A DNA stretch of 64,000 bases from Geopsychrobacteraceae bacterium (GCA_963662315.1 OY759353.1:3840001-3904000), one strand, 5' to 3'. Numbered from the stretch's first letter, positions 9,430 to 26,228 are shown. A program made the numbers and translations. Notes: generated from the letters alone by a model not told the origin.

Positions 9430-9675
9430 ATGACAGGAGTTCCATAAGGCCAAGTGCTGAGCCCTTCAAACGCTAGCCAGCAGTCGAGAATTCCTGCGGT
9501 GCCTCTATCTCCGGCGATGGAGTTTACGCTTTCGCCGGTAATATGCGGAACAGGGGATTTATGTTGATGACAAGATTTAGAGCGAGATCAAAATTATGTA
9601 ATTGAGTCTATGAAGAGAGGGCGTCAGTGGCGCGATTCTGTTCATCTTTTTTAAGCCACGCAGGAGTTATTCTTT

Positions 9676-11786: not shown

Positions 11787-12776
11787 GTGGGTAGTGAAGC
11801 AAAAATATCTGTCTTCTTCTCATGGCAATCTGATTCTTCTAACAAAACAAACCTTAGCTTGATTGAAGATTGTCTAAAGAAGGCAGTAAAAGAAATTTCT
11901 AAAGAAGAATCAATAATTGTCATCGTTGACAGAGACACAAAGGGGGTCGGTGGAACACCTAGTATAGTTGATGCGATTTTGAAAAAAATAAGAAGTTGCG
12001 ATGTATTTGTATGGGACGCAACGATAATTAACGATATGCCAAGACACACACCAAACCCTAATGTTCTTCTTGAACTTGGATATGCACTTGCAATTGTTGG
12101 GGAAGGGAGAATCATTGGGGTCATGAATGAAGCAAAAGGAAATGGCCCGGAAAAGCTACCATTCGATCTAGTGCATAGGCGTTGGCCAATTCGGTACCAA
12201 CTAGATGATTCTGACCCCAAGTTTGAAGAAAATAAAAAAAACACGAAAAATTTTCTTACAAGTACATTTGCAAGGGCACTCAGAGAAGCCATCAAAGAAC
12301 CCAAAATAGGAGCAGTCCATAGTGACATAGATTTTCTTACTGCGAAGGTTCTTTGGGGGTGCATTAATTCTACATGGGTGCAGAACTGGCTCATGTTTAG
12401 AAAAAACAACATTCAATACGATAAACGTGAATATCGTGACAAACTTGAAGATTATTGCGACATCGCCTCAAAGCCGGAAAATAGCTTTTCTGAAAATACC
12501 CTTGGGGAGTTGCACGGAAATTTGATCAATGCCATTCAGGGGTATCTATGGGCCGCTGCAGTTGAAATGGTTCCCTGTTTTGGCAATGAAGATGCCTACG
12601 TTATCAACGCCAAAGATCAAGCTCGGCAACATGGATGGATTGAGAATTATGACGAAATGTACGATCGACAAGTAGGAGAGCTGAGAAAAGGAATTAATGC
12701 AGTAGAAAATGCGTGGGATCTTTATGTGCAGAGTCTCCGGGTTAAATACCCAGAAATTACCCACGACTTAATGTGA
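11787..12776 (+). CDS. TIR/nucleoside-deoxyribosyltransferase-like domain protein, possible defence gene
   Basis: Motifs VFFSWQSD, DRDT.G..G.P.I, CDVFVWD, PNPNVLLELGYA and LPFDL; AT-rich relative to the flanks. Confidence 0.6.
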   Translation: MGSEAKISVFFSWQSDSSNKTNLSLIEDCLKKAVKEISKEESIIVIVDRDTKGVGGTPSIVDAILKKIRSCDVFVWDATIINDMPRHTPNPNVLLELGYALAIVGEGRIIGVMNEAKGNGPEKLPFDLVHRRWPIRYQLDDSDPKFEENKKNTKNFLTSTFARALREAIKEPKIGAVHSDIDFLTAKVLWGCINSTWVQNWLMFRKNNIQYDKREYRDKLEDYCDIASKPENSFSENTLGELHGNLINAIQGYLWAAAVEMVPCFGNEDAYVINAKDQARQHGWIENYDEMYDRQVGELRKGINAVENAWDLYVQSLRVKYPEITHDLM

Positions 12777-12809
12777 TGTTTCGAGGATTTAAAAAATTCA
12801 AAACTGCCA

Positions 12810-13012
12810 ATCGGGTAGCCGGGGGTTTTGCTCCCCCAGCCCCCACACCACCCGGCATGCGGGTCCGCACCGGGCGGTTCGATGAAACTACCGGGCCGTA
12901 GCCGGGTAATGTCGCTTCACCCACAGGTCTTTGACAGAAACTAAACCCTGATCCTTCAGCACTGGTTAGTCATGCCGGAATGGGCCGCCAGCCGGCGGGA
13001 CATGGCCCACGC
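12810..13012 (-). mobile_element. 3' fragment of a group IIC intron (maturase C-terminus, domains V and VI)
   Basis: Minus strand GAACCGCCCGGTGCGGACCCGCATGCCGGGTGGTGTG (DV, CGC triad) then DVI ending GGCTACCCGAT; upstream peptide WAMSRRLAAHSGMTNQ/LKDQGLVSVKDLWVKRHYPATAR* has a 1-nt frameshift. Confidence 0.85.
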
Positions 13013-13030
13013 GGAGTTCCGGGGACAGGC

Positions 13031-13774
13031 GGAGTTCCGGGGACAGTATATAGATCTTTGACAAAGTCTTGTTTCCTGATAGTCTTTTTCTTATGGCAAG
13101 AATAGCACGAGTTATTGCACCGGGCTTGCCCCATCATGTAACGCAACGGGGCAACCGGCGGCAGACGACATTTTTTTGCGATGAGGATTTTCAGATTTAT
13201 ATCGATCTGATGGCTCATTGGTGTGCCAAGTATCATGTGGATATCTGGGCTTGGTGCCTCATGCCAAACCATGTTCATTTAATTGCGGTGCCAACAGATG
13301 AAGCCGGCCTGGCGCGTGCGATTGGTGAAGCGCATAGACGCTATACCCGACATATCAATTTCCGCCATGATTGGCGGGGTCATCTGTGGCAAGAACGTTT
13401 TGCTTCTTTCCCTATGGACGAAGCCTATCTGCTTGCCGCTGCGCGTTATATAGAAATGAACCCTGTCGCTGCAAACCTGGTCTCTGACCTTGGGCAGTAC
13501 CCCTGGAGTAGTGCGAAAGCGCACCTCAACGACCTGGATGATGGTCTGGTGAACCGCGCTCCACTATTGGATCTGGTTTCAGACTGGCAAAGTTTCCTGA
13601 AGTTAAGTAACGAAGAAGAACTGGAGATTTTGCATAAACATGAGAAAACAGGGCGACCACTTGGGAATTTGTCATTTGTTGAAAGTATCGAAGTTCTATT
13701 AGCACGGACATTGCGGCCTCTGCCACCAGGCCCTAAAAAGAATGATTAGTTCTATATACTGTCCCCGGAACTCC
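13031..13774 (+). mobile_element. RAYT-like element copy 1, bounded by 24-bp terminal inverted repeats
   Basis: GGAGTTCCGGGGACAGTATATAGA at 13031-13054 and its reverse complement at 13751-13774; extra 16-bp end copy at 13013-13028. Confidence 0.85.
13093..13749 (+). CDS. Y1 HUH transposase (RAYT/TnpA-Y1 family), copy 1
   Basis: MARIARV..PGLPHHVTQRGNRRQ, HUH motif MPNHVHL, GHLWQERF, catalytic Tyr in RYIEMNPV, YPWSS. Confidence 0.92.
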   Translation: MARIARVIAPGLPHHVTQRGNRRQTTFFCDEDFQIYIDLMAHWCAKYHVDIWAWCLMPNHVHLIAVPTDEAGLARAIGEAHRRYTRHINFRHDWRGHLWQERFASFPMDEAYLLAAARYIEMNPVAANLVSDLGQYPWSSAKAHLNDLDDGLVNRAPLLDLVSDWQSFLKLSNEEELEILHKHEKTGRPLGNLSFVESIEVLLARTLRPLPPGPKKND

Positions 13775-13777
13775 CCC

Positions 13778-13949
13778 CATGAGAAAACAGGGCGACCACT
13801 TGGGAATTTGTCATTTATTGAAAGTATCGAAGTTCTATTAGCACGGACATTGCGGCCTCTGCCACCAGGCCCTAAAAAGAATGATTAGTTCTATATACTG
13901 TCCCCGGAACTCCAGCTATATACTGTCCCCGGAACTCCCCCGGAACTCC
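13778..13949 (+). repeat. Tandem re-copy of the RAYT 3' end plus stuttered right-end repeats
   Basis: 13778-13913 copies 13639-13774 (one mismatch seen); shorter end copies follow at 13916-13938 and 13938-13949. Confidence 0.9.
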
Positions 13950-14058
13950 AGCCAATTTGATAGGCAGCCCCCTTCTCTGGGGTATATCGGTTCGCCCAAA
14001 CACCAAGTCCTCCGTCACTCTGGCCATGCGTAAATGATGGTTTAAGTTTGTTTGGAAC
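13950..14058 (-). pseudogene. Truncated orphan toxin tip beginning at VPN (Tox-REase-5-like start)
   Basis: Manual translation VPNKLKPSFTHGQSDGGLGVWANRYTPEKGAAYQIG, cut by a RAYT end; the DGG.G.W...A.YQ pattern recalls the start of restriction-endonuclease-fold toxins. Confidence 0.5.
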
Positions 14059-14087
14059 ATTTCTTTAGCTTAGAAATGTTCCAAACA
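14049..14087. repeat. Perfect 16-bp inverted repeat containing the cassette site
   Basis: TGTTTGGAACATTTCT-ttagctt-AGAAATGTTCCAAACA. Confidence 0.9.
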
Positions 14088-14090
14088 CAA

Positions 14091-14426
14091 TCAAACCTCT
14101 ACGAACTTATTCCCGCTATCAAAATGTTTAACCAATTCCTGTATTAGAAATTCGTAAACCGAATTTGATGCACTATCCGATGGCAAAAAATAGATTTTAG
14201 ATAAGTAATACCTTTTTCCTAAAGCATCATTAACCAGCTTCAAACCTGAAAGAACTTGGTCCAAAACCTGTGCAGAAGAAGTCCTCGCCTTCAAATCATT
14301 TTTAACATCCCATTCTACGACTTCTACAGCGGTTTCTTGTTCAGAAAAACTAACACCTAGAATGTTATCCTGAGAACCCGTCATCCGAGCAACTTTATAA
14401 ACGTTTCCATCTTTTACAAATTGCAT
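14091..14426 (-). CDS. Putative immunity protein 1
   Basis: 111 aa, translationally coupled (TAATG) to the upstream toxin; AT-rich. Confidence 0.7.
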   Translation of the reverse strand: MQFVKDGNVYKVARMTGSQDNILGVSFSEQETAVEVVEWDVKNDLKARTSSAQVLDQVLSGLKLVNDALGKRYYLSKIYFLPSDSASNSVYEFLIQELVKHFDSGNKFVEV

Positions 14427-15475
14427 TATTCAACCCCCCAAGGAAAACCTCTCCAACGCCAATCAACTCTGTCATGAGCTTTGCTATAACCAGAATCATA
14501 TTTCAACTCATACCACCTTTCGGCAATTTCATGTTTCATCCATGTGATATCGGCGTCAGTATGTGTTCCGCTTTCTAAGCGCTTCCAAGCCTGAGCCTGC
14601 TCTATCGTACTATCAAATCTTCCTACCGTTGCCGGGATACCCTGATCCACATAACGATCCAGTAAATGCTCGTTATAGAAAACGTGATCTTTTACTTTTT
14701 GAATATTTCCAGGTTTGAAGCCTGTACTTGATGCAATTGCAGAAACATCTGAATCACTTGCCCTTATTGCATCATATAGATCATCTGCTGATGCCGTATA
14801 TCCTCCACCACCAGTTTGTTTTAGTGGTGAAGTGTTGTTTGCAATATAGCGACGTATCAGCGCTTGTTGTTCGCCACGCTCCAAACTGGAAATATCTGCT
14901 GGAATCATAATTGAATCAGCCTGATAACGCGAATACCAATTTGCAGCTGCCGCTTTTACTTGTTTATTCGTTTCCTCACCGGATTTCTTATCCGGCTTGG
15001 CCTGTTTTATTTCCTGTTTCTCAGTAGCTTTCAGACCCTGATTGTCCACAGTTTTGACAACATTCCTTGATAAAGATCTCTGCTGGCTGTGGGTTTGCGG
15101 GGCCATGATTTTACTATAAGCAGATGAGACTATTCCCTGCAGGTTTTCATATTGGTTTATTCCTGACAGGCTGGCGACCCAGCGGCCTTTTTGGGGATTG
15201 TTCGGGTAGTCAGGGTCCTGCTGCCAGTAGACGACCCCCAAGAAGGGGAGCTTCATAGAGTAGACGAGGCAGACTTCCATCTTGTCAATTTTTTTTAGCA
15301 GCTCATCAAGCCCCTGTTGATAATTGCGCCACTGGGCAGGAACGAATTCGTTTAGATTATGAATGCTGGTAAAACCGTCACAATAGGCGTCACGGACATC
15401 GTTTTTAGCGAAAAACGGATTGGAAATATACGGCAGGTCAGCAACCGTAATATCTCTGGCAGCAACAAGTCTCAT
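14426..15475 (-). CDS. Polymorphic toxin 1: shared N-terminal domain plus HExxE..AH C-terminal domain
   Basis: First ~130 aa are near-identical to 17662..18798 and 23642..24781; unique tip YDAIR..DV..IA..TG..KDHVF...RFD...AWKRL..G...HEIAE...YSKAH. Confidence 0.75.
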   Translation of the reverse strand: MRLVAARDITVADLPYISNPFFAKNDVRDAYCDGFTSIHNLNEFVPAQWRNYQQGLDELLKKIDKMEVCLVYSMKLPFLGVVYWQQDPDYPNNPQKGRWVASLSGINQYENLQGIVSSAYSKIMAPQTHSQQRSLSRNVVKTVDNQGLKATEKQEIKQAKPDKKSGEETNKQVKAAAANWYSRYQADSIMIPADISSLERGEQQALIRRYIANNTSPLKQTGGGGYTASADDLYDAIRASDSDVSAIASSTGFKPGNIQKVKDHVFYNEHLLDRYVDQGIPATVGRFDSTIEQAQAWKRLESGTHTDADITWMKHEIAERWYELKYDSGYSKAHDRVDWRWRGFPWGVE

Positions 15476-15546
15476 CGGTATCCCCCCTCAAGGATAAAAT
15501 AAGTTGCTATAAGAAATAACTATCTGGAAAGTTTTAATGAGAGGAG

Positions 15547-15574
15547 AGGATAGCGTTTTTTTAGCTTGAGTCAA
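15547..15574 (-). promoter_or_regulatory. Probable sigma70 promoter of the toxin genes (also present upstream of toxins 2 and 3)
   Basis: Minus strand TTGACT-N16-TATCCT; RBS GAGGGGGG before the ATG. Confidence 0.5.
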
Positions 15575-15659
15575 GATGTTTAGCAGGAATTTTAAGGGCG
15601 GTCTTTTCAACTCGGGATCAATTTTCAGAAGTTATCTTAGATAAAATCACATCAAAACC

Positions 15660-15962
15660 GCCGGGTCCCGGCCCGGCAGCCGGATTCATTTTTTCCAGCG
15701 ATGAAAAAACGAATCAAAAAAATCTTTTAAGGTCAAACACACTGACGATAGTCGATTCGGTCTACACTTTATCGTTGCTACCAGCAGTGAACAGCCCGCC
15801 CAACGATGCTATTGCATCCATGGGCAGAACCGAATTAAAGTGAATACATAAAAATGCCAACGGCATTTTTGCGGTTCTGGCCATCAGGCGCGTATTGCGC
15901 TTACTATTTGTCGCCCGCTTGGGACAAATAGTAAGGCGTTGTGCGGGGCGCAACACCGCGAC
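15660..15962. repeat. Structured non-coding repeat, copy 1 (internally deleted)
   Basis: Matches 18983-19368 and 24966-25352 but lacks the segment between TATTGCGC and TTACTATTTG. Confidence 0.85.
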
Positions 15963-15987
15963 CGTGCTTGTTTCATTTCAATCATAG

Positions 15988-16731
15988 GGAGTTCCGGGGA
16001 CAGTATATAGATCTTTGACAAAGACTTGTTGCCTGATAGTCTTTTTCTTATGGCGAGAATAGCACGAGTTATTGCACCGGGCTTGCCCCATCATGTAACG
16101 CAACGAGGCAACCGGCGGCAGACGACATTTTTTTGCGATGAGGATTTTCAGATTTATATCGATCTGATGGCTCATTGGTGTGCCAAGTATCATGTGGATA
16201 TCTGGGCTTGGTGCCTCATGCCAAACCATGTTCATTTAATTGCGGTGCCAACAGATGAAGCCGGCCTGGCGCGTGCGATTGGTGAAGCGCATAGACGCTA
16301 TACCCGACATATCAATTTCCGCCATGATTGGCGGGGTCATCTGTGGCAAGAACGTTTTGCTTCTTTCCCTATGGACGAAGCCTATCTGCTTGCCGCTGCG
16401 CGTTATATAGAAATGAACCCTGTCGCTGCAAACCTGGTCTCTGACCCTGGGCAGTACCCCTGGAGTAGTGCGAAAGCGCACCTCAACGACCTGGATGATG
16501 GTCTGGTGAACCGCGCTCCACTATTGGATCTGGTTTCAGACTGGCAAAGTTTCCTAAAGTTAATTAACGAAGAAGAACTGGAGATTCTGCATAAACATGA
16601 GAAAACAGGGCGACCACTTGGGAATTTGTCATTTGTTGAAAGTATCGAAGTTCTATTAGCACGGACATTGCGGCCTCTGCCACCAAGCCCTAAAAAGAAT
16701 GATTAGTTCTATATACTGTCCCCGGAACTCC
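15988..16731 (+). mobile_element. RAYT-like element copy 2 with 24-bp terminal inverted repeats
   Basis: Inverted repeats at 15988-16011 and 16708-16731. Confidence 0.85.
16050..16706 (+). CDS. Y1 HUH transposase (RAYT-like), copy 2
   Basis: Near-identical to 13093..13749, with a few substitutions. Confidence 0.92.
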   Translation: MARIARVIAPGLPHHVTQRGNRRQTTFFCDEDFQIYIDLMAHWCAKYHVDIWAWCLMPNHVHLIAVPTDEAGLARAIGEAHRRYTRHINFRHDWRGHLWQERFASFPMDEAYLLAAARYIEMNPVAANLVSDPGQYPWSSAKAHLNDLDDGLVNRAPLLDLVSDWQSFLKLINEEELEILHKHEKTGRPLGNLSFVESIEVLLARTLRPLPPSPKKND

Positions 16732-17101
16732 CGGTCAGATAGAGCGGTCGTCGAAAGGCAACGATCTCCATCGCCGCTTTGCAGCGCGGGCAGCGGAACA
16801 CCGGTCGTGATCGCACGGGAATCGGTTCGAGCATGACGCGCAGAACGTACTGTACCAAACGCAGAGTTCTTTTGGCGTTACCGTGCAGAAAACCATAATC
16901 CCGCACCCGGCGAAACCCTTTTGGGAGAACATGCTGGAGGACCAGCCAGAGAAAGTCTTCCCCCTTCAGGGTGAGGGTCTGCTCTTGCTGGGTCTCGCTG
17001 TCGCGATAGCGGAAAGTCACCTTTCCTTTTTGGCAGGAGATGATGTTGTTCTCGGCAATCACACCGCGATAGAGGTAGCGCGACAGATATTTCAGGGCCG
17101 T
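16732..17101 (-). pseudogene. C-terminal fragment of an IS91-family (Y2) transposase
   Basis: ALKYLSRYLYRGVIAE..VTFRYRD..FLWLVLQHVLPKGFRRVRDYGFL..CPRC; RAYT end motifs on both sides. Confidence 0.8.
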
Positions 17102-17116
17102 GGAGTTCCGGGGACA
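17102..17116 (+). repeat. Solo RAYT end motif
   Basis: GGAGTTCCGGGGACA with no transposase attached. Confidence 0.9.
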
Positions 17117-17244
17117 TCCATTTCTTTATTAGTAATCCCTTTTTCCTGCTTGAGGGCCATCAAGGATTCAAACTCTGCGCTTGCCAATGACCTTAGCTGA
17201 TCTGCTTGCTGAGAGTTAACGAGTAGCCTACTGTTTGGAACAAC
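17117..17244 (-). pseudogene. Truncated orphan toxin tip (same tip as 23012-23223, shorter)
   Basis: VVPNSRLLVNSQQADQLRSLASAEFESLMALKQEKGITNKEM begins right after the immunity 2 stop codon and is cut by a RAYT end. Confidence 0.7.
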
Positions 17245-17652
17245 CTACAATTCGATAATCACCTCAGAGTTAAATGATTCAGGCATTTGAAGAAATCTTC
17301 TCCATGCAGTAACTACGGCCTTAAATTCAGCAAGTGAAAATCTTCCTTCTGGCTGCCCAACCCATTCATCATTTACATTTATATCAACTTGAATACCATT
17401 TTGGGAAATTAAGACATCCACGTCATTTCCTTCTATATCAGACTCACTTTCGTGCCCTTCCTCTATCATTTCAACTTCAGCCAATACTCGATCACAATCA
17501 TCAATAGACTGAGCAATGCAACTTAAAATATTGGCGAGATATCGCTGATATCTCGCCACATCCTGACCATCTATAAACTCCTGGCACTGATGATAAACTT
17601 GTCCCAACACAGGATGGTTTCCACCATCAGCATAATAAAGCTTTAACTTCAC
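17245..17652 (-). CDS. Putative immunity protein 2 (cognate to the EndoU toxin)
   Basis: Acidic 135-aa protein starting 9 bp downstream of the toxin stop codon. Confidence 0.72.
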   Translation of the reverse strand: MKLKLYYADGGNHPVLGQVYHQCQEFIDGQDVARYQRYLANILSCIAQSIDDCDRVLAEVEMIEEGHESESDIEGNDVDVLISQNGIQVDINVNDEWVGQPEGRFSLAEFKAVVTAWRRFLQMPESFNSEVIIEL

Positions 17653-17661
17653 ATTGCACCT

Positions 17662-18798
17662 CTAAGGTTTCTTTGGCGTTTGATATACCGGATAAACAGT
17701 TGTTTTTGGTGAAATCCAACCCTCGACTTTGACACCGGAAGGCGTAACTGAAATCCACTTATCACCTTGAACAATCTTATTCGGGTCATTCCAAGCTGCA
17801 TCAACTTCTGTTTTAACACGGATTTCATCCCAACCTTTGGGAAACATCGTATTAGTAGAATTATTGCTAGTCTTAGTTATCCACTGTCCCGGATTCGCCG
17901 GATCGGGAACTTGAATCGTAGCTTTATATACATCTGCAACATCAGGCACCGATTCAGTTCTGGGGACAATTCGGACATCACCGTAGAGCAAAGTATGACC
18001 GCCAGTCGGTTTACCTTTTTTCGTGTAGTCAGCTTTCAATACGTGATCAAAATCTACTGGTGATTGCTGAACGTACTTGTTTGGAACAACTATCTCACCA
18101 GCAGATGATACTACAGGCCCCATCGAAAGTCCAAGCCCAGCTCTCAAACCACCAGCGGTCAACGCTGTGCCAACAACGTCATTTGTCTCAGCAGGCGTCT
18201 GAGAAAGTCGCATGCTGTAGGTACTTGCAAAGTCAGTTTGCTTAAATGCAGTAGCCTCTTGCAATACTTGATCGCCTCTTTCGGTCTCCTCAGGCCTTGC
18301 CATCACCTGCTTCTGGCCCAAAAAATTGCGTCTGCCGCCTTTGACACTGTTCTCAAACCCTTGGTTGACCACCGCTTTGGCTGTGCTGCTTTGCAAAGAT
18401 CTCTGCTGGCTGTGGGTTTGCGGTACCATGATTTTACTGTAAGCAGATGAGACTATTCCCTGCAGGTTTTCATATTGGTTTATTCCTGACAGGCTGGCAA
18501 CCCAGCGGCCTTTTTGGGGATTGTTCGGGTAGTCAGGGGCCTGCTGCCAGTAGACGACCCCCAAGAAGGGGAGCTTCATAGAGTAGACGAGGCAGACTTC
18601 CATCTTGTCAATTTTTTTTAGCAGCTCATCAAGCCCCTGTTGATAATGGCGCCACTGGACAGGAACGAATTCGTTTAGATTATGAATGCTGGTAAAACCG
18701 TCACAATAGGCGTCACGGACATCGTTTTTAGCGAAAAACGGATTGGAAATATACGGCAGGTCAGTAACCGTAATATCTCTGGCAGCAACAAGTCTCAT
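17662..18798 (-). CDS. Polymorphic toxin 2: shared N-terminal domain plus bacterial EndoU nuclease tip
   Basis: After VVPN: DFDHVL..TGGH...K...TMFPKGW...SGVKVEG...TVYP, an EndoU-type H/H/K pattern. Confidence 0.82.
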   Translation of the reverse strand: MRLVAARDITVTDLPYISNPFFAKNDVRDAYCDGFTSIHNLNEFVPVQWRHYQQGLDELLKKIDKMEVCLVYSMKLPFLGVVYWQQAPDYPNNPQKGRWVASLSGINQYENLQGIVSSAYSKIMVPQTHSQQRSLQSSTAKAVVNQGFENSVKGGRRNFLGQKQVMARPEETERGDQVLQEATAFKQTDFASTYSMRLSQTPAETNDVVGTALTAGGLRAGLGLSMGPVVSSAGEIVVPNKYVQQSPVDFDHVLKADYTKKGKPTGGHTLLYGDVRIVPRTESVPDVADVYKATIQVPDPANPGQWITKTSNNSTNTMFPKGWDEIRVKTEVDAAWNDPNKIVQGDKWISVTPSGVKVEGWISPKTTVYPVYQTPKKP

Positions 18799-18982
18799 CG
18801 GTATCCCCCCTCAAGGATAAAATAAGTTGCTATAAGAAATAACTATCTGGAAAGTTTTAATGAGGGGAGAGGATAGCGTTTTTTTAGATTCAGTCAAGAT
18901 ATTTAGCAGGAGTTTTAAGGGCGGTCTTTTCGACTCGGGATCAATTTTCAGAAGTTATCTTAGATAAAATTACATCAAAACC

Positions 18983-19556
18983 GCCGGGTCCCGGCCCGGC
19001 AGCCGGATTCATTTTTTCCAGCGATAAAAAAACGAATCAAAAAAATCTTTTAAGGTCAAACACACTGACGATAATTGATTCGGTCAACGTCTAATCGTTG
19101 CTACCCGTAGTGAACAGACCGCCCAACGATGCTGCGCATCCATGGGCAGAACCGAATTAAAGTGAGTACATAAAAATGCCAACGGCATTTTTGCGGTTCT
19201 GGCCATCAGGCGCGTATTGCGCCGTCGGCCGGCTGGTTAGATGCTGGATGTTCCTTTGGAGAGACGAAGCCCGAGTACGGACCCTTTAAAGAAGGGCGTT
19301 TTGTGCTTACTATTTGTCGCCCGCCTGGGACAAATAGTAAGGCGTCGTGCGGGGCGCAACACCGCGACCTTGCTTGTTTCATTTCAATCATAAAAGACAA
19401 CACCACCGGGTCCCGGCCCGGCAGCCGGATTCATTTTTTCCAGCGATGAAAAAACGAATCAAAAAAAATCTTTAGGTCAAACACACTGACGACAATTGAT
19501 TTTCGGTCTACGCTTATTCGTTGTTACGAGCAGAGAACAGAACGTCTGACGATGCT
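18983..19556. repeat. Structured non-coding repeat, copy 2 (18983-19368) plus partial second unit (19406-19556)
   Basis: CCGGGTCCCGGCCCGGCAGCCGGATTCATTTTTTCCAGCGAT..AAAAAACGAATC recurs after about 420 bp. Confidence 0.85.
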
Positions 19557-21551
19557 GTCGTATCAATAGACAGTGGAAGCTCATGGTCCTAATCCATAAA
19601 TTAACCAAGACTCACCGTTTTGGAGTTGTTGTGGGAGTTCCGGGGACAGTATATAGATCTTTGACAAAGACTTGTTGCCTGCTAGTCTTTTTCTTATGGC
19701 GAGAATAGCACGAGTTATTGCACCGGGCTTGCCCCATCATGTAACGCAACGGGGCAACCGGCGGCAGACGACATTTTTTTGCGATGAGGATTTTCAGATT
19801 TATATCGATCTGATGGCTCATTGGTGTGCCAAGTATCATGTGGATATCTGGGCTTGGTGCCTCATGCCAAACCATGTTCATTTAATTGCGGTGCCAACAG
19901 ATGAAGCCGGCCTGGCGCGTGCGATTGGTGAAGCGCATAGACGCTATACCCGACATATCAATTTCCGCCATGATTGGCGGGGTCATCTGTGGCAAGAACG
20001 TTTTGCTTCTTTCCCTATGGATGAAGCCCATCTCCTTGCCGCTGCGCGTTATATAGAAATGAACCCTGTCGCTGCAAACCTGGTCTCTGACCCTGGGCAG
20101 TACCCCTGGAGTAGTGCGAAAGCGCACCTCAATGACCTGGATGATGGTCTGGAGAACCGCGCTCCACTATTGGATCTGGTTTCAGACTGGCAAAGTTTCC
20201 TAAAGTTAAGTAACGAAGAAGAACTGGAGATTTTGCATAAACATGAGAAAACAGGGCGACCACTTGGGAATTTGTCTTTTGTTGAAAGTATCGAAGTTCT
20301 ATTAGCACGGACATTGCGGAGGGTGTAAAATCCTTTGTGTAAATAGACCCAGTCGGTTACAACCCGTAACCACTGGAGGAACCACAGATGTCTATACCTG
20401 ACGACCTGCTTGATAGCCTGATGAAGGACTACAAAAACCCTGAAGATCTCATTGGGGAAACCGGGCTGCTGAAACAACTGACAAAAAAACTTTTGGAGCG
20501 GGCGATGCAAACCGAGATGACCGATCACCTCGGCTATGAAAAAAACGCTCCGACTACTAATAAATCCGGCAATACTCGTAACGGAAGTTACCAGAAAAAG
20601 ATCAAGGGTGAGTTTGGAGAACTTGATATTTCTGTTCCCCGAGACCGGGATGCCAGCTTTGAACCAGCTATCCTCCCCAAAGGGCAAAGCCGATTTTCTG
20701 GCTTTGATGATAAAATCATCGCTTTGTATGCTCGCGGCATGACCACCCGCGACATCCAGGCACACTTGGAAGAAATCTATGGGGTTGAGATTTCACCGAC
20801 GCTGGTTTCTCAGGTAACCAAGGCTGTTCAGGAGGAGGTTGTTCTGTGGCAGAATCGCCCCCTTGATGATGTTTGGCCAATCGTCTACCTTGATGCTCTT
20901 CGCGTCAAGGTTCGGCAGGATAACCGAGTCATAAATAAAGCTGTCTATCTTGCTGTTGGTGTCAATCTTGACGGCGTGAAAGAGGTTCTAGGCATGTGGA
21001 CTGCCGAGAATGAAGGAGCCAAATTCTGGCTGCAGGTCGTCACCGAATTGAAGAACCGTGGGGTCAAGGATATCTTCATTGCCTGCGTCGACGGACTGAA
21101 GGGATTTCCTGAAGCGATAGAGGCCGTCTTCCCGAAAACGCAGGTTCAGCTCTGCATCGTCCATATGGTTCGGCACAGCCTGAACTACGTCTCTTGGAAA
21201 CAACGCAAGGAAGTCGCTGCCGACTTAAAAACAATCTATTCAGCGGCGACACTGGAGGAGGCTGAGTACCACCTGGAACTCTTCGGAGATAAATGGGATT
21301 CCAGCCATCCTACAATCAGCAAATCATGGCGAAACAACTGGGAGCGGATTACTCCGCTGTTCTCTTATCCGCCAGAGATCCGAAAGGCAATTTACACGAC
21401 CAACGCCATTGAGTCGGTAAATATGTCGTTGAGGAAGGTAATGAAGAACCGAGGTTCGTTCCCCAATGACGAGGCCATGTTTAAGCTGATGTATCTGGCT
21501 TTACAGAATATTGCCAAGAAATGGACAATGCCGATCCGTAACTGGCGATCG

Positions 21552-22849
21552 GGTAGTGTTCAAAATTCTGTGTCAATTCGTTACTATCATCACAACCAAA
21601 GGAATGACACATGACTCAACCCAAAATCACCTTCGATCTAGACGCTGCTCTTGCGGCCTTGCGTGAAGGCAAGGATCTCAACGGCAAAGACGGGATTCTC
21701 ACTCCGCTGATCAAGCAGCTTACAGAAGCCGCCATACAGGCCGAACTTGATGAGCACTTGGCCAATGAGGAAGGCCCGAATCGCAAAAACGGTAAAACGT
21801 CAAAAACAATCAAGTCCCTCTCGGACAGTTTTATTCTTGATACTCCGCGTGATCGCGCCAATACCTTTGAGCCCCAGCTGGTTAAAAAAAATCAGACTCA
21901 GCTTACCGATGAGTTGGAGCGGAAAATCATTGCCCTGTTTGCTCTTGGTACGAGCTATCAGGATATTCGGCAACATGTCTCCGACATGTATGGAATTTCC
22001 GTTTCCAACGGCACAATTAACGCCGTAACCGACAAGCTCTTGCCGGACCTGCAAGCCTGGCGAGAGCGCGATCTTGAAGCGATTTATCCGATCCTCTGGC
22101 TGGACGCTATCCACTACAAGGTCAAGGAAAACGGCCGTTATATCGGTAAGGCGATCTACACCATCCTGGGCCTGAACATCGAAGGCAAGAAAGAGCTTCT
22201 CGGACTCTATCTCTCCGACAATGAAGGGGCACACCACTGGTTAAGCGTTCTTACCGATCTGCATAACCGCGGGGTACAGGACATTTTGATCGCATGTGTC
22301 GATGGCCTCAAGGGTTTCCCCGAAGCTATCGAAAGCATCTATCCGAATACTGAAATCCAGCACTGCGTCATCCACCAGATTCGCAATTCGATCAAGTATG
22401 TAGCCTCAAAGAATCAAAAGGCCTTCATGGCTGATCTGAAGTGTGTCTACAAGGCAGCGACCCTCAACGCAGCGGAGCTGGCTTTGGACGACTTGGAATC
22501 GAAATGGGGTGAGAAGTATCCCATGGTCATTAAGTCTTGGCGCAGTAAATGGCCGACCTTATCCAACTATTTCAAGTACCCCGATTACGTCCGGACAGCC
22601 ATCTATACCACCAATGCTGTGGAGGCGGTTCACCGACAGTTCCGCAAACTGACCAAGACAAAGGGTGGCTTCGCCAATGAAAACAGCTTGCTGAAGCTGC
22701 TTTACGCTGGCATACTCAAGGCCTCCGAGCGTTGGACACATCCGATTCAGAACTGGAATCTGACGCTGGCTCAGCTGACCATCCATTTTCCGGGTCGGCT
22801 GGAAAAACATCTCAGTCTATGAGCCTGACACAGAATCCTGAACACCCTC
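21552..22849 (+). mobile_element. IS256-family element (inner, a different element)
   Basis: Ends GGTAGTGTTCAAAATTCTGTGTCA and TGACACAGAATCCTGAACACCCTC; 8-bp target duplication GGCGATCG at 21544-21551 and 22850-22857. Confidence 0.93.
21611..22822 (+). CDS. IS256-family transposase (intact)
   Basis: Motifs TPRDR, WLDAIHYKV, CVDGLKGFPEAI, QHCVIHQIRNS and YTTNAVE. Confidence 0.95.
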   Translation: MTQPKITFDLDAALAALREGKDLNGKDGILTPLIKQLTEAAIQAELDEHLANEEGPNRKNGKTSKTIKSLSDSFILDTPRDRANTFEPQLVKKNQTQLTDELERKIIALFALGTSYQDIRQHVSDMYGISVSNGTINAVTDKLLPDLQAWRERDLEAIYPILWLDAIHYKVKENGRYIGKAIYTILGLNIEGKKELLGLYLSDNEGAHHWLSVLTDLHNRGVQDILIACVDGLKGFPEAIESIYPNTEIQHCVIHQIRNSIKYVASKNQKAFMADLKCVYKAATLNAAELALDDLESKWGEKYPMVIKSWRSKWPTLSNYFKYPDYVRTAIYTTNAVEAVHRQFRKLTKTKGGFANENSLLKLLYAGILKASERWTHPIQNWNLTLAQLTIHFPGRLEKHLSL

Positions 22850-23011
22850 GGCGATCGGCACTGAATCAGTTTTCGATTATATTTGAAGGGCGGATGCCAC
22901 TGCTCTAACCGACGGGGCATTTACACAATCTGCTTTACACCCTCACATTGCGGCCTCTGCCACCAGGCCCTAAAAAGAATGATTAGTTCTATATACTGTC
23001 CCCGGAACTCC

Positions 23012-23223
23012 TCCGGCATAAAACCTTGTTGATTGTTGCGGTGAATCTGCGAGATTTTTCCTGTTTTCAGATCCATTGCAACGGAAAGTGCAGGCCCCAT
23101 TTCTTTATTAGTAATCCCTTTTGCCTGCTTGAGGGCCATCAAGGATTCAAACTCTGCGCTTGCCAATGACCTTAGCTGATCTGCTTGCTGAGAGTTAACG
23201 AGTAGCCTACTGTTTGGAACAAT
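23012..23223 (-). pseudogene. Truncated orphan toxin tip (possibly a YwqJ-like deaminase start)
   Basis: IVPNSRLL...KEMGPALSVAMDLKTGKISQIHRNNQQGFMP follows the immunity 3 stop codon and is cut by a RAYT end. Confidence 0.6.
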
Positions 23224-23642
23224 CAATTATTTACATTCAAACACGATGGAATTTTTCCGTTTGTCTTTAAAAAGCTTAAACATATTTCGCGAACAGTCTC
23301 TATATCATCAATTAAGCTCCGATCATTCTGAAATTGTCCCAATATAGCGATATTTTTAGCATCTTTATCTGGGTTATATAATCGGTAAATTAATCGATCT
23401 CCTTCAGAGTCAACTTCGCTACATTCCACATAACATTTCCCTGCATCACAACTTACGTTAAGACTGCATTCGCCAGGCTCATCTTCCTCTCCTTTCCAAA
23501 GGGATAGAAAGCCATTATTTGAGTACACCGAATCTAACCGTGCAAAAACTTCTCTTTCAGTTGGATTTTTCAGCATTGTACTTTGGTTCCGTTCTCCAGA
23601 GGGTGAATAAACAAACCCTCCTATGCTCAGTTGTTCGATCAT
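23223..23642 (-). CDS. Putative immunity protein 3 (cognate to the deaminase toxin)
   Basis: 139 aa, TAATG-coupled to the toxin; NPT..EV...L and DDIETVREIC..F pattern is reminiscent of Imm1-like proteins. Confidence 0.72.
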   Translation of the reverse strand: MIEQLSIGGFVYSPSGERNQSTMLKNPTEREVFARLDSVYSNNGFLSLWKGEEDEPGECSLNVSCDAGKCYVECSEVDSEGDRLIYRLYNPDKDAKNIAILGQFQNDRSLIDDIETVREICLSFLKTNGKIPSCLNVNN

Positions 23643-24781
23643 TATTCAGCCTTTGACTTAATAATTTTAAACTTGCTCATACCTGGCTCCCAATAATAAG
23701 TTTTCGGGAGGCCCGTTTTATTACTTAAAGAACGAACAGTTAAACTAGTGTATTCGTCTTTAATTGCAGCTTGCACAAGATCTTTTTGGCAAAAACCACA
23801 AACATCAAGACCATCTACATCCATTACAACATTTGAACCTTTCCCAACACCGGAATTTCGAATTTGCTGAGCCACTCCGATTTCAGCATGAGCATTTGCC
23901 ATATTGCTATTTGGATACCCACCTTCTCGTAGAGGTTTAGCCTCAACGAATTCTGAAATAAACGTTTTCTGATTCGCATCCGCTCCCAATCTAAGAGTTG
24001 GATTGATATCTTCAAATAGTTGATCGCCTACTTTTGCTCGAGCTCTAACAGATAATTCAGTGTTTGGAACCACTCTTCCACCAGCAGATGATACTACAGT
24101 CCCCTTCGAAAGTCCAAGCCCAGTTCTCAAACCACCAGCGGTCAACGCTGTGCCAACAACGTCATTTGTCTCAGCAGGCGTCTGAGAAAGTCGCATGCTG
24201 TAGGTACTTGCAAAGTCAGTTTGCTTAAAAGCAGTAGCCTCTTGCAATACGTGATCGCCTCTTTCGGCCTCCTCAGGCCTTGCCATCACCTGCTTCTGGC
24301 CCAAAAAATTGCGTCTGCCGCCTTCGACACTGTTCTCAAACCCTTGGTTGACCACCGCTTTGGCTGTGCTGCTTTGCAAAGAGGCCTGCTGGCTGTGGGT
24401 TTGCGGTACCATGATTTTACTGTAAGCAGATGAGACTATTCCCTGCAGGTTTGCATATTGGTTTATTCCTGATAGGCTGGCGACCCAGCGGCCTTTTTGA
24501 GAATTGTTCGGGTAGTCAGGGTCCTGCTGCCAGTAGACGACCCCCAAGAAGGGGAGCTTCATAGAGTAGACGAGGCAGACTTCCATCTTGTCAATTTTTT
24601 TTAGCAGCTCATCAAGCCCCTGTTGATAATTGCGCCACTGGGCAGGAACGAATTCGTTTAGATTATGAATGCTGGTAAAACCGTCACAATAGGCGTCACG
24701 GACATCGTTTTTAGCGAAAAACGGATTGGAAATATACGGCAGGTCAGCAACCGTAATATCTCTGGCAGCAACAAGTCTCAT
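23642..24781 (-). CDS. Polymorphic toxin 3: shared N-terminal domain plus cytidine-deaminase-like tip
   Basis: After VVPN: zinc-deaminase motifs AHAEIG and DVCGFC. Confidence 0.82.
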   Translation of the reverse strand: MRLVAARDITVADLPYISNPFFAKNDVRDAYCDGFTSIHNLNEFVPAQWRNYQQGLDELLKKIDKMEVCLVYSMKLPFLGVVYWQQDPDYPNNSQKGRWVASLSGINQYANLQGIVSSAYSKIMVPQTHSQQASLQSSTAKAVVNQGFENSVEGGRRNFLGQKQVMARPEEAERGDHVLQEATAFKQTDFASTYSMRLSQTPAETNDVVGTALTAGGLRTGLGLSKGTVVSSAGGRVVPNTELSVRARAKVGDQLFEDINPTLRLGADANQKTFISEFVEAKPLREGGYPNSNMANAHAEIGVAQQIRNSGVGKGSNVVMDVDGLDVCGFCQKDLVQAAIKDEYTSLTVRSLSNKTGLPKTYYWEPGMSKFKIIKSKAE

Positions 24782-24965
24782 CGGTATCCCCCCTCAAGGA
24801 TAAAATAAGTTGCTATAAGAAATAACTATCTGGAAAGTTTTAATGAGAGGAGAGGATAGCGTTTTTTTAGCTTGAGTCAAGATGTTTAGCAGGAATTTTA
24901 AGGGCGGTCTTTTCAACTCGGGATCAATTTTCAGAAGTTATCTTAGATAAAATCACATCAAAATC

Positions 24966-25539
24966 GCCGGGTCCCGGCCCGGCAGCCGGATTCATTTTTT
25001 CCAGCGATAAAAAAACGAATCAAAAAAATCTTTTAAGGTCAAACACACTGACGATAGTCGATTCGGTCTACACTTTATCGTTGCTACCAGCAGTGAACAG
25101 CCCGCCCAACGATGCTATTGCATCCATGGGCAGAACCGAATTAAAGTGAATACATAAAAATGCCAACGGCATTTTTGCGGTTCTGGCCATCAGGCGCGTA
25201 TTGCGCCGTCGGCCGGCTGGTTAGATGCTGGAGGTTTCTTTGGAGAGATGAAGCCCGAGTACGGACCCTTTAAAAAAGGGCGTTTTGTGCTTACTATTTG
25301 TCGCCCGCCTGGGACAAATAGTAAGGCGTTGTGCGGGGCGCAACACCGTGACCGTGCTTGTTTCATTTCAATCATAAAAGACAACACCACCGGGTCCCGG
25401 CCCGGCAGCCGGATTCATTTTTTTCCAGCGCTGAAAAAACGAATCAAAAAAATCTTTAAGGTCAAACACACTGACGATAATTGATTCGGTTTACGTTCTA
25501 TCGTTGCTATCAGCAGTGAACAGACCGCCCAACGATGCT
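24966..25539. repeat. Structured non-coding repeat, copy 3 (24966-25352) plus partial second unit (25390-25539)
   Basis: Same multi-hairpin sequence as 18983-19556. Confidence 0.85.
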
Positions 25540-25784
25540 GTCGTATCAATAGACAGTGGAAGCTCATGGCCCTACTCCATAAATTAACCAAGATTCACCG
25601 TTTTGGAGTTGTTGGGTAAATAATATCTCAAAAGAGTCAGAGATTGGTCAGAAATCACCTATATAATGGATTAATTGGCAATATGAGAAGCCTGATCGAA
25701 GACTTTCATTCGGTGGGCATTAAAATTTTTAATATTATATGTGAGGTGTAGAGATTCATGGGATTCAGGTTTTTCTACAGACTC

Positions 25785-26228
25785 GTTAGCTTTACCATCA
25801 AGGAAGTCACATGCAATTTGAAGAACAAGTATTCATCGCCGCATCTGCTGAAGAGGTGTTCAGGTTGTATGCTGACGTAAGCAGCTGGTCTACATGGGAT
25901 ACTGAGGTAAAAGCATCTTCCATTGACGGGGTATTTGCTTCTGGTGTCAATGGTCAGCTTCAGCCTACTAAAGGACCAAAAGCAAAAATTACCATCACAG
26001 AAGTGTTTTCCAACTACTCGTTTACGGTAGAAAGTAAGCTCCCTTTGTGCATTATGCTCTTTGAACATGAACTTTCGAAACGTTCGGGGGGTACGAATGC
26101 CTTGCATCGAATAAGCTTTGAAGGTTTGCTTTCACCTTTGTTCGGTTGGCTTATTGGCTCTCAAATTCGGAAAGGGCTGCCGGGTACGTTGCAGGGCCTG
26201 AAGCAGGTTGCCGAACAACAAAGCTAAC
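25785..26228 (+). other. Integron gene-cassette-like boundaries around the SRPBCC gene
   Basis: GTTAGCTTT 26 bp before the ATG and its exact complement AAAGCTAAC overlapping the TAA stop. Confidence 0.5.
25811..26227 (+). CDS. SRPBCC/polyketide cyclase-like protein
   Basis: I.ASAEEVFRLYADVSSWSTWD N-terminus and C-terminal helix LQGLKQVAE. Confidence 0.85.
   Translation: MQFEEQVFIAASAEEVFRLYADVSSWSTWDTEVKASSIDGVFASGVNGQLQPTKGPKAKITITEVFSNYSFTVESKLPLCIMLFEHELSKRSGGTNALHRISFEGLLSPLFGWLIGSQIRKGLPGTLQGLKQVAEQQS

Follow-up and report, generated by a model that had tools for sequence, protein, structure and literature searches.

RAYT-like genes (RAYT: REP-associated tyrosine transposase) that lie between terminal inverted repeats were named TIRtrons, and their products TIRYTs, by Di Nocera, De Gregorio and Rocco in 2013 (PMC3733652). 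Many TIRYT repeats are described there as sharing the sequence GGGGWSAS and as occurring singly, as dimers or in groups. The classification of Quentin et al. 2018 (PMC6006769) places most TIRYTs in subclass 2.1 of class 2, with the signature Y---NP; it gives as a feature of this subclass a C-terminal extension with a helix-turn-helix (HTH)-like domain (Bac_DnaA_C, HTH_23 or HTH_28), and describes most class 2 Y1 genes as being of low copy number and passed on vertically. Both kinds of gene, for TIRYTs and for RAYTs, are widespread, and the TIRYT kind has barely been studied. Here we analyse a TIRtron in a stretch of 64,000 nucleotides (nt) from a Geopsychrobacteraceae bacterium (GCA_963662315.1, OY759353.1:3840001-3904000; hereafter the window), which is part of a 4.71-Mb genome assembled as a single contig. 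Three copies of the element alternate there with polymorphic toxin-immunity units, and pieces of its ends abut truncated neighbours. The explanation towards which we lean, with some reserve, is that a mobile TIRtron has undergone end-adjacent rearrangements in a permissive toxin island. Positions refer to the window unless marked as genome positions.

The 744-bp element and its copies

A preliminary description of this stretch had noted three near-identical elements alternating with toxin units and 11 sites of an end motif, and both observations hold. The copies are 744 bp long, 98.4-98.8% identical (9 of 744 positions differ between A and B, 11 between B and C, 12 between A and C) and in direct orientation on the + strand: copy A at 13031-13774, copy B at 15988-16731 and copy C at 19634-23011, the last in two parts (19634-20319 and 22945-23011). 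Their ends are 27-bp inverted repeats, 96% complementary, and GGGGACAG, which fits GGGGWSAS, occupies positions 9-16 of both; this 8-mer or GGGGACAC is conserved across homologous loci. Single ends fold no better than shuffles (z 0.30 to -1.00), and local hairpins looked for in the element ends were not found. Between the ends lies one gene, probably at 13093-13749 in copy A and, intact, probably at 16050-16706 in copy B. Copy C is broken at element position 686 by two transposase genes of the IS256 family (IS: insertion sequence), at 20388-21614 and 21611-22822 (408 and 403 amino acids), with a 9-bp target duplication; this is an ordinary later event. The inserted pair (20320-22944) consists of two different genes back to back, and the single 9-bp duplication bounds the whole of it.

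The encoded protein probably has 218 amino acids, with the ATG at 16050 as its start in copy B. It matches Pfam Y1_Tnp (6e-14) and contains HVH (HUH) and RYIEMNP (Y---NP tyrosine) motifs, in agreement with the HUH/Y1 enzyme of the preliminary description. H60, H62, Y119, N123 and P124 are invariant or nearly so among 27 aligned homologues. An AlphaFold model built on these homologues (pLDDT 89) is closest in fold, among PDB entries, to the REP-associated tyrosine transposase of E. coli (4er8_A; E 6.9e-7, TM 0.72 on the target) and next to the TnpA proteins of ISDra2 and IS608; a PDB search by sequence returned nothing at E up to 0.01. The name RAYT, first given to the element, has to be replaced. 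The NCBIfam model NF047646 (REP_Tyr_transpos) scores 76.9 bits, below its cut-off of 80, and the ends are plain inverted repeats without folding. The element is a TIRtron encoding a TIRYT, an HUH/Y1 enzyme of the sister group of the RAYTs, and it probably belongs to TnpA-Y1 subclass 2.1. About 95 residues lie C-terminal to the tyrosine motif, with model helices at 141-203; no Pfam HTH or Bac_DnaA_C match was found in this C-terminus even at E up to 10, and a paralogue at genome 0.35 Mb has a Bac_DnaA_C match at 2.1e-5. Two other assignments were tried and rejected: a classical RAYT/REP unit, because the RAYT model stays below its cut-off, the ends are not self-complementary and there is no dispersed end-motif population; and an IS200/IS605 member, because inverted ends are present and neither local hairpins nor a common flank target is.

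A fourth copy, D, is intact at genome 3420170-3420913, with ordinary genes alongside. It is the closest to the others (6, 8 and 9 differences of 744, against 9-12 among A, B and C), so that the four are mutually 98.4-99.2% identical; the open reading frames of A, B and D are intact. Variants shared among the copies conflict with one another, which suggests gene conversion between them. A congener (G002) has a decayed orthologue of copy D; copy D therefore stands at an old resident locus. In addition, a genome of another genus of the same family (G023) holds a 97% copy between ordinary genes. Similarity of this order, within the genome and across genera, argues that the unit as a whole moved recently; several near-identical copies in unrelated places and a sign of horizontal spread are what is generally expected of an autonomous insertion sequence. 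We picture a TIRtron that would have multiplied recently, so that one copy now occupies the old resident locus and the other three an island of about 15 kb that was acquired. A homologue at E up to 1e-40 is present in 94 of 233 genomes of the order, and most of these 94 have one close copy.

As the preliminary description had stated for the array, no target duplication is seen: this holds for the four genome copies, the G023 copy and the metagenome ends, where no common target or flank sequence was seen either. For no copy could the contiguous flanks of a simple insertion be demonstrated. The sole other genome of the genus of G023 gave no match to the flanks of the G023 copy.

Two further forms of the element were seen. 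A decayed 90% copy at genome 678546-679469 (L014) has lost positions 273-340 and adjoins a Y1 gene of 33% identity. The relatives G001 and G002 carry gene-less doublets of both ends, back to back and about 55 bp long (L050 3710, L051 3770, L052 3352); the one that was folded gives a hairpin of -18.5 kcal/mol (z -5.4). These doublets resemble REPINs or miniature inverted-repeat transposable elements (MITEs) of this TIRtron family.

Partial ends and a recurrent break point

The sequence GGAGTTCC occurs at 12 sites in the window against 1.82 expected, and none of 100 shuffles reached 12. Eleven of them lie in the array and are the sites of the preliminary description: 13013, 13031, 15988, 17102 and 19634 on the + strand, and 13767-13774, 13906-13913, 13931-13938, 13942-13949, 16724-16731 and 23004-23011 on the - strand, for which the earlier coordinates had given the start of a longer motif. 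The twelfth, at 9436, is unrelated to the element. Genome-wide, a 15-mer end motif has 12 sites, every one inside the four copies and their partial ends.

Beyond the three copies there are six more, partial ends. Their outer edge is always intact and their inner length varies, as first noticed: 16 and 15 nt at left ends, and 136, 23 and 10-12 nt at right ends. The partial left end ahead of copy A (13013-13028, + strand, 16 nt) is part of a perfect tandem duplication of 18 nt at 13011-13046 (+), made up of 2 nt of flank and the first 16 nt of the left end. This duplication breaks directly 3' of GGGGACAG, a design that recurs in other homologues, distant ones among them. Outside the right end of copy A, nested right ends fill 13778-13949 (+), with 136 nt at 13778-13913, 23 nt at 13916-13938 and 10-12 nt up to 13949. 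A solo left end, GGAGTTCCGGGGACA, of 15 nt at 17102-17116 (+), is joined to the tip 3' of the second toxin-immunity unit.

The recurrent design is an end copy cut right 3' of the 8-mer, with the next copy following 0-8 nt on. Counting as break-point pairs those truncated end copies that stand 16-24 nt ahead of the next motif, we found 11 pairs at 7 of 30 loci (the window and its homologues in the order), five of them consecutive at one locus (L069). Metagenome loci have such pairs in 3 of 21 cases, one locus (L104) with four, and the paralogue loci of this genome in 1 of 7, namely L030, whose protein is 27-35% identical. Breaks after 15 nt are found at 17102-17116 in the window and at L098. 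Longer terminal duplications are also present, and the outer edge is intact in each.

Because the breaks recur directly after the motif, we read this point as the nick site: the TIRYT would nick between positions 16 and 17 (GGGGACAG^T), 16 nt from the element edge. The family-wide footprint, end copies broken right after GGGGWSAS, in this way predicts a cleavage site, and DNA seems to break and rejoin preferentially at the element ends. A nick at the predicted site, another cut a few bases beyond the element edge, and subsequent rejoining could produce the stutter of short end pieces. Joining of an intact end to nearby non-homologous points would delete or rearrange the intervening DNA, and such joins would leave truncated neighbours without target duplications. 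Of the earlier proposal that the enzyme nicks at a fixed end and joins it to variable sites, the intact ends and the varying partners stand as observations; the nick site, the joining chemistry and the order of events are what we infer from the arrangement of the sequences.

Toxin-immunity units and the acquired island

The three toxins of the window are nearly identical over their first 135 amino acids and differ in their C-terminal domains, and each is followed by a small adjacent gene that we take to be an immunity gene. All three units are on the - strand. Unit 1 (14091-15475) has a toxin gene at 14426-15475, with a C-terminal domain without a Pfam match, and its presumed immunity gene at 14091-14426; the region upstream (15476-15986) holds pieces of a dispersed repeat, R, at 15649-15729 and 15891-15986 and stops at the left end of copy B. 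Unit 2 (17117-19632) consists of a tip (17117-17244), an immunity gene (17245-17652), an EndoU toxin gene (17662-18798) and upstream copies of R at 18972-19052 and 19192-19473. Unit 3 (23012-25614) has the corresponding tip (23012-23222), a DUF6911 immunity gene (23223-23642), a deaminase toxin gene (23642-24781) and upstream R copies.

In the whole genome there are eight complete toxin genes (338-397 amino acids) at four loci, with N-termini that are 93-96% identical; the five outside the window are at genome 349208, 3991904, 4206673, 4210935 and 4213098. C-terminal domains of the EndoU, deaminase, RNase A-like and colicin-DNase/WHH types are found in the family, and the N-terminal domain (about 135-240 amino acids) matched no Pfam family. 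None of six other genomes of the genus has the family. A collection of 5.8 billion proteins yielded seven paralogues from this genome and one relative of 62% with CHAP and PG_binding domains, and a scan of genome contigs for toxin relatives gave one weak match. The toxin paralogue at 0.35 Mb (L027 4260-8401, genome 346260-350401) stands directly 3' of genes for a phage-type tail sheath and a gp19-type tail tube. The toxin family may be cargo of a contractile injection system; among the open reading frames scanned at genome 326-372 kb, no baseplate or other tail genes were seen.

The neighbours of the elements are truncated at different points, as had been described. The tip 3' of the immunity genes is cut at 17117 in one unit and at 23012 in another, and the region upstream of the toxin at 15986 versus 19632. 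The 3' piece of a group II intron at 12807-13012 (- strand; Rfam RF00029, 43.8 bits at 12810-12879) stops at the left end of copy A, whereas in eight other genome copies of this intron stretch the shared sequence continues beyond the point that corresponds to 13010-13012. An IS91-family (Y2) transposase gene is represented at 16732-17101 (- strand) by a 370-bp internal fragment, which matches Pfam Y2_Tnp at 8.7e-19 over profile positions 119-179 of 183; the right end of copy B truncates it on one side and the 15-nt left end on the other. Like the tip and the right flank of copy A, this piece is unique in the genome, where it has no other match.

What had been called the toxin upstream region needs a different description: its cuts stand, and the region itself is largely repeat R, which is dispersed between genes at many non-toxin loci. 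The core of R is about 284 nt, often in tandem with a period of about 423 nt, and it has 127 nhmmer matches with both strands counted. R lies in the window at 15649-15986, 18972-19473 and 24956-25458; it has strong hairpins, and also a GC stem with a run of T after it that resembles a terminator. At seven toxin units, as at several loci elsewhere, R is present as a partial copy whose start lies at about model position 197-205. Copy D is flanked on its right by a truncated R copy, and pieces of group II introns adjoin R at several loci.

The region is flanked by genes for pyruvate kinase and CN_hydrolase, which in the relatives G002 and G003 stand 1.3-1.4 kb apart; the window from about 11.3 to 26.2 kb is therefore an inserted island. 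This acquired island of about 15 kb holds three copies of the element, three of the eight toxin-immunity units and mobile-element debris. Position 25614, the right edge of unit 3, was considered as the island border and rejected, because the Polyketide_cyc2 gene at 25811-26227 is also absent from the relatives. Within the island, a gene at 11787-12776 has a weak match to CAP12/Pycsar TIR-domain proteins (2.5e-4, below the cut-off) and is a candidate for a role in defence. The idea that a TIR-domain gene keeps its place beside the element in both G039 and the window was likewise discarded, the two proteins being unrelated (E 0.21).

Taken together, the toxin loci hold IS256, the IS91 piece, three IS110 copies, an IS481 element and group II intron debris. 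The IS110-family elements, at genome 4.20 Mb (L023 3037-4518, 5075-6549 and 9267-10748), are 99.9% identical. All three directly adjoin a TIRYT paralogue or a 3' fragment of one, as would an insertion sequence that targets the TIRtron end. Elsewhere, at genome 2835995-2836939 (L083), lies an integron integrase gene (TIGR02249, 480.7 bits, cut-off 265), and R arrays start about 10 kb 3' of it in the same orientation. We considered whether the toxin units or R might be integron cassettes, which would call for attC sites at the cassette boundaries in an array next to intI: self-comparison of the 13 kb beside intI found no attC-like array, and no attC cores (RYYYAAC / GTTRRRY) were seen by eye at the junction of R and toxin unit.

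Competing readings and known systems

If the element is a mobile TIRtron prone to end-adjacent rearrangement, the alternation of elements and toxin units would result from insertions and such rearrangements in a repeat-rich island, to which homologous exchange between copies would contribute. The pattern of junctions fits end-adjacent deletion or rearrangement as well as it fits capture.

Several points weigh against this explanation. All four genome copies have non-contiguous flanks, and a passive history needs many events to account for them; empty sites were sought for all copies and none was found, the relatives within the genus giving the decayed G002 copy instead. The IS91 fragment is bounded on both sides by element ends, and neither outer flank is IS91. 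Unit 2 stands between two left ends of the same orientation, and its homology with unit 3 extends precisely up to the left end of copy C (25614, the equivalent of 19631). No activity of any TIRYT is described in the accessible parts of PMC3733652 and PMC6006769. Then there is the company that Y1 genes keep. At all four toxin loci a Y1/TIRYT gene lies within 3 kb, and these genes represent at least four diverged lineages (30-46% identity). Six of the 11 PF01797 matches fall in the 0.94% of the genome that is within 3 kb of a toxin gene, and none of 200,000 random placements hit all four toxin loci. With a Y1 gene so close to every toxin locus, we regard the association as real.

These observations could instead reflect active mobilisation, in which the TIRYT copies the element together with DNA on one side of it, by read-through or one-ended transfer, and reinserts both at the end of a resident copy; the outcome would be head-to-tail arrays of element and toxin-immunity unit, and toxin units spread to new loci. 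We think this unlikely. It would account for the junctions of a variable point with an intact left end at 13012, 15986 and 19632, for unit 2 between two left ends and the IS91 piece between a right and a left end, and for the finding that across the family new end copies always lie just outside existing ends. It would also suit a toxin family that is present in one of seven genomes of the genus, yet at four loci with such similar N-termini, and the toxin units that diverged TIRYT elements abut at two other loci. At 3.99 Mb a paralogous TIRtron, with ends that read GGAAAAGGGGACAGGC and a 36-nt tandem duplication of the left one, has a truncated intron piece on one side and, on the other, a toxin upstream region that breaks off within R; at 4.2 Mb a TIRYT paralogue ends about 75 bp 3' of an immunity gene.

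Active mobilisation also predicts transfer in blocks, however, and no inner junction of element and unit is common to two modules. Copy D and the G023 copy carry no cargo. Among 72 open reading frames that flank homologues (L055-L082), none has a polymorphic-toxin domain; those that were recognised are ordinary genes, and Fic, Mrr and CAP12-type TIR proteins are each encoded once in the set. The toxin family was not found in genomes of other species, and the dispersed repeat that flanks the toxin units could itself mediate their spread. Of the earlier claim of an association with toxins, the proximity of Y1 genes at every toxin locus of this genome therefore stands, and the expectation of toxin neighbours fails at copy D, in G023 and at L055-L082. 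That the enzyme captures and amplifies toxin units, as was first proposed, is possible; the data do not show it, and other insertion sequences and intron debris share these loci.

It is tempting to extend this thought to TIRYTs in general, as end-targeted, flank-carrying mobilisers that nick after GGGGWSAS, copy element and unit, and join them at a resident end. We consider this quite unlikely. If true, it would explain why four diverged TIRYT lineages are found at all four loci of a toxin family confined to this genome, and RAYT-like enzymes would for the first time have a concrete role in the cell, that of an engine which diversifies the weapons used between bacteria.

Alternatively, the TIRYT may be an inactive or domesticated passenger. 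The mosaic would then come from general homologous and illegitimate recombination in an acquired junkyard island, among element copies, repeat R, toxin N-termini, introns and insertion sequences, and the stutter of end pieces from replication slippage. The variant mosaic among the copies resembles gene conversion, many repeat families and insertion sequences share these loci, and the direct orientation of the window copies allows deletion and duplication by unequal exchange; the low copy number and vertical inheritance ascribed to most class 2 Y1 genes (PMC6006769) would agree as well. Slippage, however, leaves unexplained why breaks fall after the same 8-mer in elements whose proteins are only 27-35% identical. 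The recent movement of the whole unit and the intact frames of A, B and D also speak against a passenger, and we find this account doubtful.

Finally, it is very improbable that the triplication and nested ends are an artefact of mis-joined repeats: the region is repeat-rich and no read or contig seen spans its whole 10 kb, but the genome is in one contig, each junction has its own unique flank, 9-12 positions differ between copies, and bridging contigs of public runs cross 13884-15136 (X6, X8 and X9) and 16702-17174 / 16820-17168 (X6 and X9) with 0 differences. A contig of a further run (X10), whose label names another organism, extends over 13778-14072. In X6 and X8 the element has a word depth about 3.2-3.5 times as high as unique pieces do, which is weak evidence because contig depth is no copy number. 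The runs with bridging contigs may include the source strain. The misassembly that the preliminary description had named as a threat is thus answered for two stretches, and the triplication as a whole is unspanned among the contigs seen.

What the locus offers, on the reading of a mobile TIRtron with end-adjacent rearrangements, is a natural case of a whole TIRtron that has multiplied within a genome and crossed genera, with a strong, genome-specific link to a new polymorphic toxin family. If it is true that the enzyme joins its ends to foreign DNA, this would be a new route for shuffling toxin-immunity units; even if it is not, the locus provides a good substrate for the first TIRYT biochemistry.

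Rhs, CdiA and MafB orphan modules are polymorphic toxin-immunity arrays with a conserved N-terminal part and a variable C-terminal toxin. The units described here share with them the conserved N-terminus, the variable toxin end and the small adjacent immunity gene, and differ in being complete genes of 338-397 amino acids rather than 3' orphans of a giant gene. In IS91/ISCR elements, which encode a Y2 HUH enzyme and move by rolling-circle transposition, adjacent genes are carried by one-ended transposition. One fixed end and a variable other boundary would be a likeness to them if capture took place. IS91/ISCR enzymes have two tyrosines and the ends are different, and here we found no read-through products that have an inner junction in common.

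IS200/IS605 elements such as IS608 and ISDra2 share the Y1 HUH fold. They, too, are not known to produce a target duplication. Unlike the element of the window, they have subterminal hairpins, no inverted ends, a transposase of about 130-150 amino acids and a fixed tetra- or pentanucleotide target. REPtrons, with their RAYT (E. coli TnpA-REP, PDB 4ER8), come closer: they have the same HUH and Y---NP motifs and provide the best structural match, and the hairpin-folding end doublets of G001 and G002 are like REPINs. Here, in contrast, the ends are non-palindromic and do not fold alone (z about 0), and the genome has no dispersed REP/REPIN population.

The closest likeness is to the TIRtrons themselves. 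According to the cited accounts (PMC3733652, PMC6006769), these have the same Y1/HUH gene, plain inverted repeats with GGGGWSAS, a protein longer than a RAYT with a C-terminal extension, and ends that likewise occur as singles, dimers or groups; a genome usually has one close copy. The TIRtron of the window differs in its four near-identical copies in one genome and 97% copy in another genus, in end duplications that regularly break after the motif, and in its clustering in polymorphic-toxin loci.

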